The notes: generated by a model not told the origin, from the letters alone. Shown: positions 2,942-16,718, numbered from the stretch's first letter. The stretch is 52,529 nucleotides of DNA from a virus (IMGVR_UViG_3300028569_000046:1-52529); one strand, 5' to 3'. Translations and numbers: made by a program.

Positions 2942-4024
2942 ATGAAACTTCCCGATACAGAACAATTTAATTTTAAAGATGTCACTGTTGCTGGTGACGA
3001 CTGTTGGTTAATCACACCAAAAGATATGTCGGTAAAGTGGACTGACGACAATGCGCGCTTTCGTTCTTGCATTGTCCGCAAATCCGATAACACCGTAGTG
3101 TCTCAAGGCTTTGGAAAATTTACCAACTTTGGAGAGCAGCCAAACTTTCAACCGTGGGAAGATTCATGGCCTGTAAAAGCTGTTCATAAGCTTGACGGCT
3201 CGTTGCTTATTGTTTCACGTCACAACGGAAAACTTGTTGTGAGTACTCGAGGAACGGTCGATGCTCGGATGCTGACCAACGGCCATGAAATTGACGGTTT
3301 AGTCATTCGGTATCCTGAAGTGTTTGACAATAATTTTTTAGACAATGGCTATTCGGTATTGCTGGAATGGACAAGTCCAACGCGCATTATTGTGCTGCGT
3401 GAACATAATGTCCCGACACTAACTTTGGTAGGCATGATCTTTAATAAGACTGCACAATACGTATCACAACAAAGTCTAGATGACGTTGCCAAATTGTGGT
3501 GCGTCGGTCGTCCGTCGCGCTACAACTACAACACAACGCAAGAATGTATTTCGGATGTGCAAAATTGGATTGGAAAAGAAGGTGTTGTGCTCTATTCTCC
3601 TGACGGTCAAACATTGAAGAAAATTAAGGCGTCTCATTATTGCCATTTGCATAAAGTTGCCGCCGGAATTTCCAATGTAAAATCAGTGATGGATTTGTTT
3701 TTGGCTTCTCCACGCTTTATCTGTGCAAATGATTTTTATGATTATGTTGTCAATACAACTGACTATGAGATTGCCGAGCGAATTCGCCCAGAAATTGAAA
3801 CAGTGGTGCAGGCATATAATTGCTATATTCAAAAACGCGATGCTATGATTGACTGGGCAAACTCATTGCGTGCGTATGACACTCGCCGAGAACAAGCGTA
3901 TGCAATAACACAACAATATGATGATTGGCGCAAGGCGCATTGCTTTAATATATTGTCCGAAAAACAAACTGACGACACCGTTGCGATTTTTTATGAATTG
4001 GAGCAAGTGAAAATTGAACCATAA
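2942..4024 (+). CDS. rnlA: RNA ligase, T4 Rnl1-like
   Basis: GFGKFTNFGE, adenylation motif KLDGSL, STRG, EGVV and KIK nucleotidyltransferase motifs. Confidence 0.85.
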   Translation: MKLPDTEQFNFKDVTVAGDDCWLITPKDMSVKWTDDNARFRSCIVRKSDNTVVSQGFGKFTNFGEQPNFQPWEDSWPVKAVHKLDGSLLIVSRHNGKLVVSTRGTVDARMLTNGHEIDGLVIRYPEVFDNNFLDNGYSVLLEWTSPTRIIVLREHNVPTLTLVGMIFNKTAQYVSQQSLDDVAKLWCVGRPSRYNYNTTQECISDVQNWIGKEGVVLYSPDGQTLKKIKASHYCHLHKVAAGISNVKSVMDLFLASPRFICANDFYDYVVNTTDYEIAERIRPEIETVVQAYNCYIQKRDAMIDWANSLRAYDTRREQAYAITQQYDDWRKAHCFNILSEKQTDDTVAIFYELEQVKIEP

Positions 4025-4673: not shown

Positions 4674-4703
4674 GTTTACAAATGTCATAAAGTATGGTAC
4701 AAT
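4674..4703 (+). promoter_or_regulatory. early promoter
   Basis: GTTTACA-17-TACAAT with extended TG. Confidence 0.75.
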
Positions 4704-4924: not shown

Positions 4925-5127
4925 ATACAGAAATTAATTATGCATCTCTTGCTGGTGCCTACAAAGGCACTATGCACGGATTAATCTACGCCTTAGTGCA
5001 AACCAATATCGTTCACCCAAACAAATATGATGAGCTCAGGGCCTTTATTACAAAGGAAATCGAGCGCATCGAATCAACATACGGCAAAGCTTCAATTTCA
5101 ACTGGGGGTGAAAAGGTTTCGACATGA
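4921..5127 (+). CDS. hypothetical protein overlapping the tmRNA 5' end
   Basis: ATGA-coupled ORF; its last 24 nt lie within the tmRNA. Confidence 0.6.
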   Translation: MNTEINYASLAGAYKGTMHGLIYALVQTNIVHPNKYDELRAFITKEIERIESTYGKASISTGGEKVST

Positions 5128-5428
5128 TAAGAAACACACCTATTGCAACACACAGTCTGCTTGACTTTAAAAGCGAAAAACAAAAGGCGAAAATAACCTT
5201 GCATTAGCTGCGTAAGCTACGTCCACTTTTTGACTCCTCTAAAAGATGTGGGCGACGACAGAGGATAGCTTTTTAGGCAAATCTAAAATAGGTTGAGTAC
5301 ACCAAACTATACTCTGGGGCACAACGTAGGTGCATAGCCGGCAAGCATGGCGAAAAAAGCTTGATATTGTTGTAGATTATAGATTGTTTGTATCGTGGAC
5401 TCGGGTTCAACTCCCGACACCTCCACCA
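5104..5428 (+). ncRNA. ssrA: tmRNA, tag peptide (A)GENNLALAA
   Basis: 5' GGGGGTGAAAAGGTTTCGAC; 3' T-arm TCGGGTTCAACTCCCGA and CACCTCCACCA; acceptor stem with G3.U wobble; tag ORF 5186-5215 ending LALAA-TAA. Confidence 0.96.
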
Positions 5429-8477: not shown

Positions 8478-8547
8478 CATTTTGTTGAAAAAAGTTGTTT
8501 ACAAACGGCGATTTTTATGGTAGAATAGTCCCGTAAGGAAACACCAC
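8478..8547 (+). promoter_or_regulatory. repeated early promoter/RBS cassette, copy 2
   Basis: cattttgttgaaaaaagttgtttacaaacggcgatttttatggtagaatagtcccgtaaggaaacaccac. Confidence 0.85.
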
Positions 8548-8550
8548 ATT

Positions 8551-8705
8551 ATGAGCCTAGAAAAAGCAATATTGTAAAACAAGAAGGCGTTTGGGGTGAT
8601 CAACTCAATACAATTACCGAAGTAAAATATCCATTTGTTTGTGGTAATGCTCATTTAGGAAGAGTTGTTGGCAACGTTTTTGAGAATAGTGAACTCTTAA
8701 AATGA
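8551..8705 (+). pseudogene. broken ORF: MSLEKAIL* joined out of frame to a YopX-like C-terminus
   Basis: The -1 frame 8571-8705 reads IVKQEG...RVVGNVFENSELLK, similar to the YopX end (VIGNIxENxELL), with no start codon. Confidence 0.6.
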
Positions 8706-13538: not shown

Positions 13539-13568
13539 GTTTACAAACGCCAAAAAATATGGTAGAAT
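13539..13568 (+). promoter_or_regulatory. early promoter
   Basis: GTTTACA-17-TAGAAT with TGG. Confidence 0.8.
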
Positions 13569-15669: not shown

Positions 15670-15778
15670 AGGTATATCGTACCAATTTAAAGAAGGAGTG
15701 TTAATTGGTCGCGATGGAGAAAAATACCACAACGATTACAGCTATCGTAGAGCAATAATTATTGGTTCATACAAATAA
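15518..15778 (+). CDS. putative outer-membrane lipoprotein spanin (Rz1-like)
   Basis: +1 frame; signal peptide MK(STKLKMK)LMLSLLMAVLLAN-C with a lipobox-like Cys; alternative start 15539. Confidence 0.6.
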   Translation: MKSTKLKMKLMLSLLMAVLLANCGLNGWPKESNERANGSNLYTPETVTLVEGISYQFKEGVLIGRDGEKYHNDYSYRRAIIIGSYK

Positions 15779-15799
15779 TTATCAAAATTCTACAAACTT

Positions 15800-15833
15800 A
15801 AAACCAAGAGGTACTTTATCCTCTTGGTTTTTT
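15800..15833 (+). terminator. Rho-independent terminator
   Basis: aaaaccaagagg-loop-cctcttggtttt plus T run. Confidence 0.85.
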
Positions 15834-15850
15834 GTTTAATACTTCTACAA

Positions 15851-15858
15851 TATAAATA
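15851..15858 (+). promoter_or_regulatory. T4-type late promoter
   Basis: TATAAATA 6 nt before ATG 15865. Confidence 0.75.
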
Positions 15859-15864
15859 AACATT

Positions 15865-16098
15865 ATGTCTATAACATCACAATATCGAAAAATGTATCAA
15901 TCTCAAAGTCTTAAGGAAGGTGTATCTTATCAAGACATAAATGACGTTCTTAAAAACTTTCAAGATAAAGTTTTGGATCCTTTTATTTTGGATAAGGATC
16001 TCAATCAAGAACTTGTACTTCAATTGAAGGACATATATGATACAATGGATAAATTAATAAAAGGTGATCTTTTGGAATTAAGAAAAGGTGAACAATAA
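15865..16098 (+). CDS. late small protein, possible internal head protein
   Basis: Own late promoter; leader ..YRKMY..SLKE-G. Confidence 0.6.
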   Translation: MSITSQYRKMYQSQSLKEGVSYQDINDVLKNFQDKVLDPFILDKDLNQELVLQLKDIYDTMDKLIKGDLLELRKGEQ

Positions 16099-16109
16099 TA
16101 CATTTTGTT

Positions 16110-16138
16110 GTTTACATACTTTTGAAATTTGATATAAT
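16110..16138 (+). promoter_or_regulatory. early promoter
   Basis: GTTTACA...TGATATAAT. Confidence 0.7.
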
Positions 16139-16144
16139 AATATT

Positions 16145-16285
16145 AAGGTCTTAAAGGCGCCATAATGGCTTGACCTTGTTTTGTTATAAAACAAACATTA
16201 AAAGTACCGAAGGTTCCCGAAGGGATGACAAATGTGTGTATGATTCCTTCTATGGTAGGATTGGATGGTAATTTCCAACCGTAAA
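16145..16285 (+). ncRNA. candidate structured non-coding RNA, unknown class
   Basis: Promoter followed by no credible ORF and several consecutive stems. Confidence 0.45.
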
Positions 16286-16300
16286 AAACCTTAAAATTTT

Positions 16301-16330
16301 GTTTACAACCGCGGTAAAGTATGGTAGAAT
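16301..16330 (+). promoter_or_regulatory. early promoter
   Basis: GTTTACA-17-TAGAAT. Confidence 0.8.
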
Positions 16331-16339
16331 AGTACCGTA

Positions 16340-16651
16340 ATGACCGCCTACCCTTTGGAAGATTCACTCCGTTCTCGTAAGACTCCTATTTTTGGAGTCC
16401 GTGAAAAGACCTACGGAAAAACTCACGATGTCTATACAGGTGCACCATGCATTTGGTCCGCCGACAGAGGCGCAACTCATACGCTTTATTGCGGTGAAAC
16501 TGAAGGGCCGTTTCGGCGTCCTGGTACTGGAACGCGTCCTGCTCGGCTTCTTAAAACGGTTCTTTATGTAGGAACTGATGAAGAAAATGATGCAATTGTT
16601 TGGGAAAAATGGCACATTCAAACACTTTGGACCTTTGCTAACGACAAATAA
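16340..16651 (+). CDS. hypothetical early protein
   Basis: ATG 9 nt after the -10 box. Confidence 0.65.
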   Translation: MTAYPLEDSLRSRKTPIFGVREKTYGKTHDVYTGAPCIWSADRGATHTLYCGETEGPFRRPGTGTRPARLLKTVLYVGTDEENDAIVWEKWHIQTLWTFANDK

Positions 16652-16718
16652 TTGAAAAAAGATGTTTACAGCTGCCATAGAATATGGTAGAATATCTTTG
16701 TAAGGAAATACCACAACA
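16652..16718 (+). promoter_or_regulatory. repeated early promoter/RBS cassette, diverged copy
   Basis: ttgaaaaaagatgtttaca...tatggtagaat...gtaaggaaataccacaaca. Confidence 0.8.

Follow-up and report, generated by a model that had tools for sequence, protein, structure and literature searches.

An invariant 19-nucleotide core behind early promoters of uncultured T4-like myoviruses: a candidate family of non-coding RNA modules

We describe a promoter-coupled element, about 190 bp at its largest and about 100 bp at its smallest, whose pattern of conservation indicates that it is new, non-coding and probably functional. Its core, 19 nt long, is invariant among distinct phage sequences from several genomic contexts, and a strong early promoter always lies a short distance upstream on the same strand. 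Our first, still tentative, choice among the readings considered is a new family of early non-coding RNA modules, coupled to promoters, that dock a conserved partner through their core. Under this reading, the promoter at 16110 and the roughly 150 nt behind it would be one member of a family residing in uncultured aquatic T4-like myoviruses. Each module would consist of a strong host-type early promoter, a variable leader of 40-70 nt and the invariant core, CCGAAGGUUCCCGAAGGGA, with an A-rich tail; a leader hairpin with an AUAAA loop (in two classes) and a 3' domain ending in a hairpin (also in two classes) would be optional parts. We rank this reading above, in descending order, an R-loop or primer origin of replication, an antitermination leader, a double-stranded DNA site, a functionless cassette and a micro-protein gene.

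The window, by which we mean the whole stretch of 52,529 nt that was analysed, is a fragment (52.5 kb, about 31% complete) from the record of an uncultured virus; it encodes T4-type baseplate proteins. The motif GTTTACA-N14-18-TANAAT occurs in it 10 times, always on the + strand, where 0.15 copies are expected and 10 were reached in none of 100 shuffles; this amounts to about one early promoter per 5 kb of + strand. A sequence-only reading of the window had placed an early promoter in front of the element and had let the element end before the next promoter, and both placements were borne out (Table 1). The promoter at 16111-16138 scores 11/12 and has an extended -10, from which we infer a transcription start at about 16145. 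The same reading held that every other copy of the promoter is followed by an ORF. This is true of eight of the nine others, which have an ORF of at least 30 codons starting within 28 nt (for the copy at 13539, the count relies on a GTG-start ORF of 56 codons), but not of the copy at 8497, which leaves a gap of about 176 nt before such an ORF. Behind this last copy lie an 8-codon ORF and then some 40 startless codons in another frame, up to a 251-codon gene at 8702, and the interval 8527-8703 may represent a small gene that has decayed or been frameshifted. Another copy (4674-4703) is followed by two small ORFs and then, at a distance of about 400 nt, by a phage tmRNA gene on the + strand (5104-5428; Rfam score 97.5 bits, gathering score 47; tag peptide GENNLALAA by ARAGORN).

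Between the end of the preceding ORF (16098) and the 16111 promoter there is no terminator-like site. The nearest one, at 15800-15831 and ahead of the upstream ORF, is a strong terminator hairpin of 12 bp with a T-run. It is followed by a late-promoter-like box, TATAAATA (15800-15864 together), just 5' of a 77-codon ORF at 15865; because of this terminator and box, the gene upstream of the module looks late rather than early. A search for viral relatives of the 77-aa protein found none.

Table 1. Features of the module in the window, and genomic contexts in which the module occurs
Feature	Position or sequences	Strand	Remarks
Early sigma-70-type promoter	16111-16138	+	-35 TTTACA 16111-16116; TG 16130-31; -10 TATAAT 16133-38
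Variable leader	16145-16206	+	Small 5' hairpin, window-specific outer stem, window-specific hairpin, A-rich linker
AAGGTC/GACCTT inverted repeat	16145-50/16172-77		Computational detection
GCCA-TAA-TGGC	16159-69		Read in sequence
TTGTTTT/AAAACAA inverted repeat	16176-82/16188-94		Computational detection
TACC/GGTA	16205-08/16254-57		Read in sequence
Invariant 19-nt core CCGAAGGTTCCCGAAGGGA	16207-16225	+	Two CCGAAGG repeats 10 nt apart; 25-sequence alignment
GAAGG/CCTTC	16209-13/16246-50		Read in sequence
TCCC-GAA-GGGA	16215-25		Read in sequence
19-codon ATG ORF	16225-16284	+	Not conserved
Semi-conserved tail	16226-16235	+	U, variable triplet, A-rich run (UGACAAAUGU)
Pyrimidine segment AUUCCUUC (CCUUC 16246-50) and GGUA 16254-57	16236-16257	+	
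3' hairpin GG-A-UUGGA-(loop)-UCCAA-CC	16258-16280	+	
TTGGA/TCCAA	16261-65/16274-78		Read in sequence
A-rich tail GUAAAAAACCUUAAAA	16281-16296	+	No terminator before next promoter
Next early promoter	16301-16330	+	10 nt 5' of 103-codon ORF 16340-16651; module boundary
Class A	window, L016, L011, L012, L010, L018, L019, L026		Between two early promoters, early region, no ORF
Class B	L009, L014, L015, L017, L027, L062, L068		Antisense, between terS 3' end and terL start in L009, L014, L015, L017, L027 and apparently L062
Class C (marine)	L020, L023, L025, L032, L033, L049, L040		Core about 27 nt before 62-codon gene
Class D1	L021, L057, L060		Antisense between two late-type genes
Class D2	L036, L069		Between two promoters, no ORF

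The entry point to the homologues was the downstream 103-aa protein, which led to one close relative, L008, on the same contig as L016. When L008 and the window are aligned, a block of about 45 nt is nearly unchanged amid more variable flanks. Exact-pattern scans with parts of this block returned 9 IMG/VR stretches, 33 metagenome stretches and, out of 185,579 species genomes, 2 genome contigs. The metagenome stretches are of three kinds: 21 are phage-like and A+T-rich with the promoter upstream; nine are G+C-rich without a promoter, mostly inside coding sequence, and are read as chance; and three belong to a G+C-rich bacterial hairpin element that is treated below. Degenerate Y/R scans of IMG/VR that allowed changes in either mini-hairpin of the core gave 38 and 34 stretches. 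No true core variant was among them, and the four extra stretches (two distinct) have no promoter motif in the 100 nt upstream. Among 50,697 deposited phage records we found no copy of the core, with two partial matches at E=6, and among deposited phages there were no close DNA relatives either of a 901-nt region around the element or of a class B region.

In an alignment of 25 distinct phage sequences (duplicates removed; 47 nt aligned), a small set with many closely related members, all 19 core columns are invariant. The core thus shows 0 substitutions across five genomic contexts. The base directly after it is T in 24 of 25 sequences, and in the tail at least 90% of the sequences agree at column 34 (T) and at columns 39-40 (A). 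Among syntenic relatives, core and tail are 93-100% identical, as against 68-86% for the flanks and 67-88% for the neighbouring genes; between classes, the flanks of the core cannot be aligned at all. The core is 63% G+C and follows a leader that is 68% A+T, rising to 84% over its last 25 nt, in a window of 63% A+T. Its direct repeat was also detected computationally, and each CCGAAGG copy is predicted to be able to form a C-GAA-G mini-hairpin (CC-GAA-GG and UCCC-GAA-GGGA). There is one core in the window (covariance model: 59.3 bits, next best 17.2 bits) and one in the complete class C genome, in which a second candidate of 18.3 bits was rejected as half a motif within coding sequence; two class D contigs have two divergent copies each, about 50 kb apart. 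The longest match to the complement of the core elsewhere in the window is 10 nt. The conservation pattern of the core fits sequence-specific recognition by a partner common to all these phages, or pairing with a fixed nucleic acid.

All 25 distinct sequences have a TTTACA-N16/17-TAnAAT promoter that shares the strand of the core and precedes it by 41-77 nt (by script in 22 of 22 loci plus three more, with L062 and L068 inspected by eye); in the 22 loci, the -10 and the core are separated by 47-76 nt. Because the window has only about one such promoter per 5 kb, finding it at the right place and on the right strand in five unrelated contexts would be far beyond chance.

The contexts themselves are listed in Table 1 as classes A to D. 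In class A, the second promoter lies 75 nt past the core; the neighbours are the 77-aa and 103-aa genes in the window group, and a GIY-YIG endonuclease gene and RNase H in L011 and L012, where the module sits between the ribonucleotide reductase and RNase H genes. The GIY-YIG genes, which are homing-endonuclease-like, lie about 90-540 nt upstream of the core in L011/L012 and nearby in L014/L027, and in L027 the gene is beside a shortened terL. The class B placement between terS and terL was established for L009, L014, L015, L017 and L027, and apparently applies to L062 by its downstream similarity; L068 has the class B promoter and leader with a different sequence downstream of the core. The class B core is 4 nt from the terS stop codon. 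The class B terL is 61% identical to that of the nearest deposited phage, Phage C48C1 (Kyanoviridae; L103), in which terS and terL overlap and no module is present, whereas in L014 (6434-6550) the module lies between them. The class B module is therefore an insertion of about 165 bp and, because it is antisense between terS and terL, there is no sense gene behind it. In class C, the 62-codon gene after the core has no Shine-Dalgarno sequence, and the substitutions between L023 and L025 are, by eye, mostly synonymous. In the window the ATG at 16340 is 10 nt past the -10 box; together with the class C gene, several early genes that start within a few nucleotides of their promoter or without a Shine-Dalgarno sequence hint at leaderless or Shine-Dalgarno-independent translation in these phages. 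The complete class C genome (170,716 bp) encodes a T4-type DNA polymerase, baseplate wedge, sheath and terminase, and a class D virion protein is 45% identical to its counterparts in S-RIM8 and S-RIM50. All classes are T4-like myoviruses. Across them, the module inserts as an independent unit, sense or antisense to its neighbours.

Such mobility recalls the PeSL (promoter-early stem-loop) elements, in which repeated early promoters bound shuffled cassettes in T4-type phages, according to two papers (PMC2839356; PMC4122927), the latter of which gives the T4-group early promoter consensus as TTTACW-N17-TAYWAT. PeSLs and the module are alike in that near-consensus early promoters bound small cassettes at differing places in related genomes, and the window does contain repeated near-consensus sigma-70-type early promoters. 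They differ in that the cargo here is an invariant non-coding core rather than an ORF, and in that no stem-loop or terminator is joined to the 16111 promoter or lies directly upstream of it. Moreover, conservation of PeSL motifs is confined to one genome or a close pair, whereas that of the module core extends across lineages. The module might have no function at all if it were a mobile cassette of this kind, with its early promoter, or what is left of a decayed gene. The occurrence of the same module between different neighbours (the window versus L011/L012), the insertion in class B, the GIY-YIG genes that adjoin the module in L011/L012 or lie near it in L014/L027, and the documented shuffling of cassettes by early-promoter repeats (PMC2839356; PMC4122927) would all suit this reading. 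We nevertheless consider it very improbable, since neutral DNA would not hold 19 nt fixed while the flanks diverge past alignment between classes, recent spread would bring similar flanks, and no relative has an ORF at the site.

The same lack of a conserved frame bears on whether the element encodes a micro-protein. The sequence-only reading credited the sense strand with a 19-codon ORF and nothing else; that ATG ORF is present, but so is a 33-codon TTG ORF, and these are the only + strand ORFs between the promoters. In favour of a micro-protein gene, made of this or another small frame, an ATG lies directly after the core in classes A and B, with GAAGG 11 nt upstream. However, the ORF, whose conservation among homologues in place of the pairing the sequence-only reading had named as a refuting outcome, is broken or shortened in all seven other class A sequences: it has 4 codons in four of the seven (L016, L012, L018 and L026), 12 in L011 and 11 in L010, and its ATG is missing in L019 and in classes C and D. 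Nor is any open frame with a start kept across the classes on either strand (six frames, 22 sequences). A 74-codon minus-strand frame was rejected as a gene, since only some of the class A sequences have it open and class B has it broken. By this comparison the micro-protein reading is largely refuted, and we give it scarcely any credence. What is upheld is the proposal of a promoter-driven stretch devoid of a gene, in the form of a promoter-coupled, conserved, non-coding element.

Whether the element folds as an RNA is less straightforward. The sequence-only reading had described a well-folded multibranch RNA, and had named in advance a folding energy no better than that of shuffled controls as the outcome that would speak against it. 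On the + strand this is the outcome: 16145-16295 has an MFE of -33.3 kcal/mol, compared with -30.0 (sd 3.5) for shuffles (z -0.93), and 40 of 200 shuffles are as good. The minus strand of the window element folds better (z -2.78). Over 19 homologues the mean + strand z is about -0.9, with z at or below -2 in two. The MFE structure of the window omits the multibranch, and folds vary widely among homologues. The named stems do all exist as inverted repeats in the sequence, but the outer stem AAGGUC/GACCUU and the UUGUUUU/AAAACAA hairpin are found in the window only and are missing from its relatives. CCUUC has three competing partners, namely the first GAAGG, GAAGGGAU of the core (8 bp) and a downstream AGGAUU; the GAAGG/CCUUC pairing is possible in most class A and D sequences, and ViennaRNA picks different partners in different homologues. 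The segment 16236-16257, which contains CCUUC, occurs in classes A and D and is missing from L010, class B and class C. In the predicted ensembles, hairpin probabilities are low and variable (hp2, 0.00-0.92). RNAalifold gives weak structures for 7 class A and 5 class D sequences, unlike between the two classes, with covariation terms of +0.49 and +0.28 and with 1 and 2 pairs changed on both sides, respectively. Those core stems that are able to covary show no covariation.

Two flanking hairpins fare better. The 5' hairpin with its AUAAA loop is found in classes A and C, with GCC-AUAAA-GGC in relatives. Its cells pair in 77.3% of cases, compared with 72.2% in shuffles (2 of 500 as high) and 24-58% when the pairing is slid, and one pair is changed on both sides (AU in 6, GC in 4); its covariation is modest. 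A local 3' fold is predicted in 7 of 7 class A sequences, five of the UUGGA/UCCAA type and one, L026, with another stem; the fold of L016 is weak (-1.0 kcal/mol). A box related to the 3' hairpin, GGUGGAUUAGAG, is present in class D. By eye, G.U pairs in the + sense occur in the 5' hairpin (L010, L012, L018, L023), in the 5' stem of class B (L009, L068) and in an AUUCC/GGGAU helix (window, L012, L016, L019, L069). Wobble pairs of this kind make it look as though the flanks were under selection as + strand RNA. In class D2, the 11-13 nt that precede the core recur behind the core and its tail, and from L036 to L069 the two copies change in step (CCTCAAGATCCA twice; CCTTATAAGGTCC and CCTTAAGGTCC). 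Either copy could pair with one and the same GGUGGAU/CGGAU further downstream, a hint of alternative structures.

A different picture emerges for the core-touching stems of classes B and D1: C.A on the + strand becomes G.U on the minus strand, so that they are better on the minus strand, with minus-strand z of -3.1 to -4.3. In L021, a 12-bp hairpin with a T-run on the minus strand (3639-3668) looks like the terminator of a late gene and includes the first three core bases, and L057 and L060 keep this type of hairpin through G.U pairs on the minus strand only. In two contexts, we conclude, the core region has a second role as part of the 3' hairpin of a late gene on the opposite strand. On the + strand, no terminator was found behind the core in the window, in L021 or within 150 nt in L014.

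Searches of known families were uniformly negative, in agreement with the sequence-only reading that the element is not a tRNA, riboswitch or known ribozyme. Rfam 15 gave no match in 16100-16300 at the gathering threshold and none overlapping the element at E of 10 or less in 15700-16700, nor was there an Rfam match at the element in 11 related loci. ARAGORN found no gene in the window other than the tmRNA and nothing at the element. The exact 19-mer of the two genome copies is not in any CRISPR array, and TRF found no tandem repeats of about 35 nt at the element, as type III antitoxins would have; the sole tandem repeat is an A-rich 10-nt unit repeated twice at 16277-16296, and none reaches 30 nt. 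A terminator-ended trans-acting sRNA would have a 3' intrinsic terminator, which the element lacks. In the literature, excluding supplements, a search for such a motif in T4-like or cyanophage genomes found only the PeSL papers and general reviews. We found the element described in no Rfam family, deposited phage or paper, and it is best filed as a variation on the early-promoter cassette theme with a non-coding, invariant cargo.

Among the 185,579 species genomes, just 2 contain the exact 19-mer, with one copy in each, so it is not a copied host gene; a high-copy repeat in these two bacterial genomes was likewise rejected. The identical 19-mer in L022, L037, L044 and L052 (three metagenome contigs and one Anaerolineae MAG) belongs to a G+C-rich element in which a covarying stem of 5 bp encloses two GAA-type mini-hairpins; the element also has an A-run, abuts a GGAGGGG ribosome-binding site and has no Rfam match. 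In L052 it stands after a TPP riboswitch and before a thiamine pyrophosphokinase-like gene. A model of the element found 4 diverged members (L099-L102) in 151 Anaerolineae genomes searched, in which the inner hairpin sequence varies and the pairing is kept. The bacterial element resembles the phage core in its adjacent GAA-type mini-hairpins followed by an A-run, with the identical 19-mer in four cases, but differs from the phage module in that it has no TTTACA promoter, is not invariant and is G+C-rich. The bacterial family may be unrelated to the phage core and alike only by design. Because it keeps its twin mini-hairpins paired, the twin mini-hairpin is a workable RNA module.

In summary of the balance for the RNA module, we count in its favour the invariance, the promoter coupling, the gene-free insertion, the lack of a conserved frame, the + strand wobble and the 5' and 3' hairpins. 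Against it we count that the + strand fold is no better than shuffles, that the MFE folds disagree, that no class has an intrinsic terminator to define a 3' end, and that the core-touching stems of classes B and D1 are better on the minus strand. A further point against it is that 19 contiguous invariant positions, stems included and with no covariation, exceed what an RNA-protein site typically needs; because of this excess, a DNA site or base pairing fits as well.

The simplest DNA reading is a double-stranded site for a protein such as a regulator, initiator or packaging factor, with the promoter link incidental or regulatory and the RNA irrelevant. Nineteen contiguous invariant bp with two direct 7-bp repeats one helical turn apart, each also a short palindrome, are what such a site might look like, and the class B core is near the terS stop codon. 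The end of terS is a common place for packaging signals. Yet outside class B the module is not near terminase genes, and its spacing from the promoter is variable (41-77 nt), so that the core is not an operator. Nor does the core serve a further promoter as activator box, since no -10-like element stands at a fixed distance downstream; a middle-type second promoter with the core as its activator box was rejected on the same ground in classes B, C and D. The + strand wobble pairing in the flanks also speaks against a DNA site, and we regard this reading as quite unlikely.

A second DNA-based reading, which we hold to be a weaker possibility than the RNA module, is an origin of replication. Here the promoter would transcribe into the A+T-rich stretch, the purine-rich RNA would stay hybridised, the displaced + strand would be kept open by two d(C-GAA-G) mini-hairpins, and the R-loop would prime the leading strand in the manner of T4 oriF and oriG. 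Hairpins of the d(GCGAAGC) type are exceptionally stable. In a variant, the two repeats spaced by 10 bp would act as iterons, as at oriE. The promoter without a gene, antisense among late genes in classes B and D1, fits an origin, as do the 1-2 copies per genome (a divergent pair about 50 kb apart in class D), the A+T content of 84% immediately ahead of the core (25 nt), the lack of any terminator after the module and the position of the L011/L012 module between the ribonucleotide reductase and RNase H genes. T4 itself provides the precedent: according to a review (PMC3016281), the minimal T4 origin is a promoter plus an A+T-rich unwinding element, and oriE is early-promoter dependent with 12-nt direct repeats. 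The module shares with oriF, oriG and oriE a promoter with dispensable coding, an A+T-rich stretch, few copies and late-gene positions, but T4 origins have no common sequence motif according to the same review, whereas the module has an invariant 19-mer and flanks that look RNA-selected. As the review also states that an R-loop needs no specific sequence, the 19-mer would go unexplained. Furthermore, only two short repeats (7 nt, 10 nt apart) are available as iterons, and the + sense wobble pairs and conserved 3' domain favour RNA structure. Finally, neither GC nor AT skew has an inflection at the element in the complete 170.7-kb class C genome or in a class D contig, although skew follows transcription in these phages.

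The module could also be a cis-acting leader that modifies its own RNA polymerase for processive antitermination or against Rho, so that early transcripts could pass through untranslated or antisense stretches. The core is always about 100 nt or less behind a strong early promoter and never followed by a terminator; in class C it is part of the 5' leader of a gene that lacks a Shine-Dalgarno sequence and starts about 27 nt further on; and in classes B and D1 the transcript would be long, untranslated and normally stopped by Rho. Invariance across phages of different waters would fit a universal target such as RNA polymerase. Known examples are the put RNAs of HK022, paired promoter-proximal hairpins in the early transcript that act sequence-specifically on a conserved host enzyme. 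Their stems are far longer than the module's hairpins, which have only 2-4 bp and low, variable predicted probabilities; the position behind an early promoter fits. Only 1 of 10 early promoters in the window carries a module, with 1-2 per genome; class A has a second promoter 75 nt after the core; and the window has no strong downstream terminators to be overcome. We therefore judge antitermination unlikely.

To return to the RNA module as we tentatively favour it, the module would be transcribed immediately after infection, with the + strand RNA as its active form; a look-up of sequencing runs returned 19 of DNA and none of RNA. The core would be where a partner docks in a sequence-specific manner. 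As this partner would not co-vary from one phage lineage to another, it would be a conserved machine or factor of the host and not a phage protein that evolves fast. The RNA itself may be an abundant early decoy or the RNA of a ribonucleoprotein, trimmed from a longer transcript to its 5' and 3' hairpins. Phage RNA decoys are known, among them pseudo-ToxI antitoxin mimics and solitary CRISPR-repeat RNAs, which are short, have their own promoter and mimic a host or defence RNA; the module differs from them in having no tandem repeat of at least 30 nt and no CRISPR array or host locus with the exact 19-mer. The sequence-only reading had likewise inferred a decoy or anti-defence RNA, and the analysis turned up no tie between the element and a defence system. 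More speculatively, and with low confidence, the core may be a device that seizes a universally conserved host machine at the start of infection, either as an RNA that reprograms RNA polymerase or the ribosome or as a hairpin-locked R-loop origin.

Few viruses are as abundant as the T4-like myoviruses of lakes and oceans, and to our knowledge almost nothing is known about their non-coding elements. Nineteen unchanged nucleotides amid diverging surroundings point to a strong constraint at the first minutes of infection. The module is small and clonable, and could reveal a new RNA-protein interaction, a replication start or a transcription device; its core is also a simple sequence tag for finding these phages in metagenomes. 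If a host machine turns out to be the partner, or if the element turns out to be an origin built in a new way, it would represent a class of element that has no described relative and stands alone.
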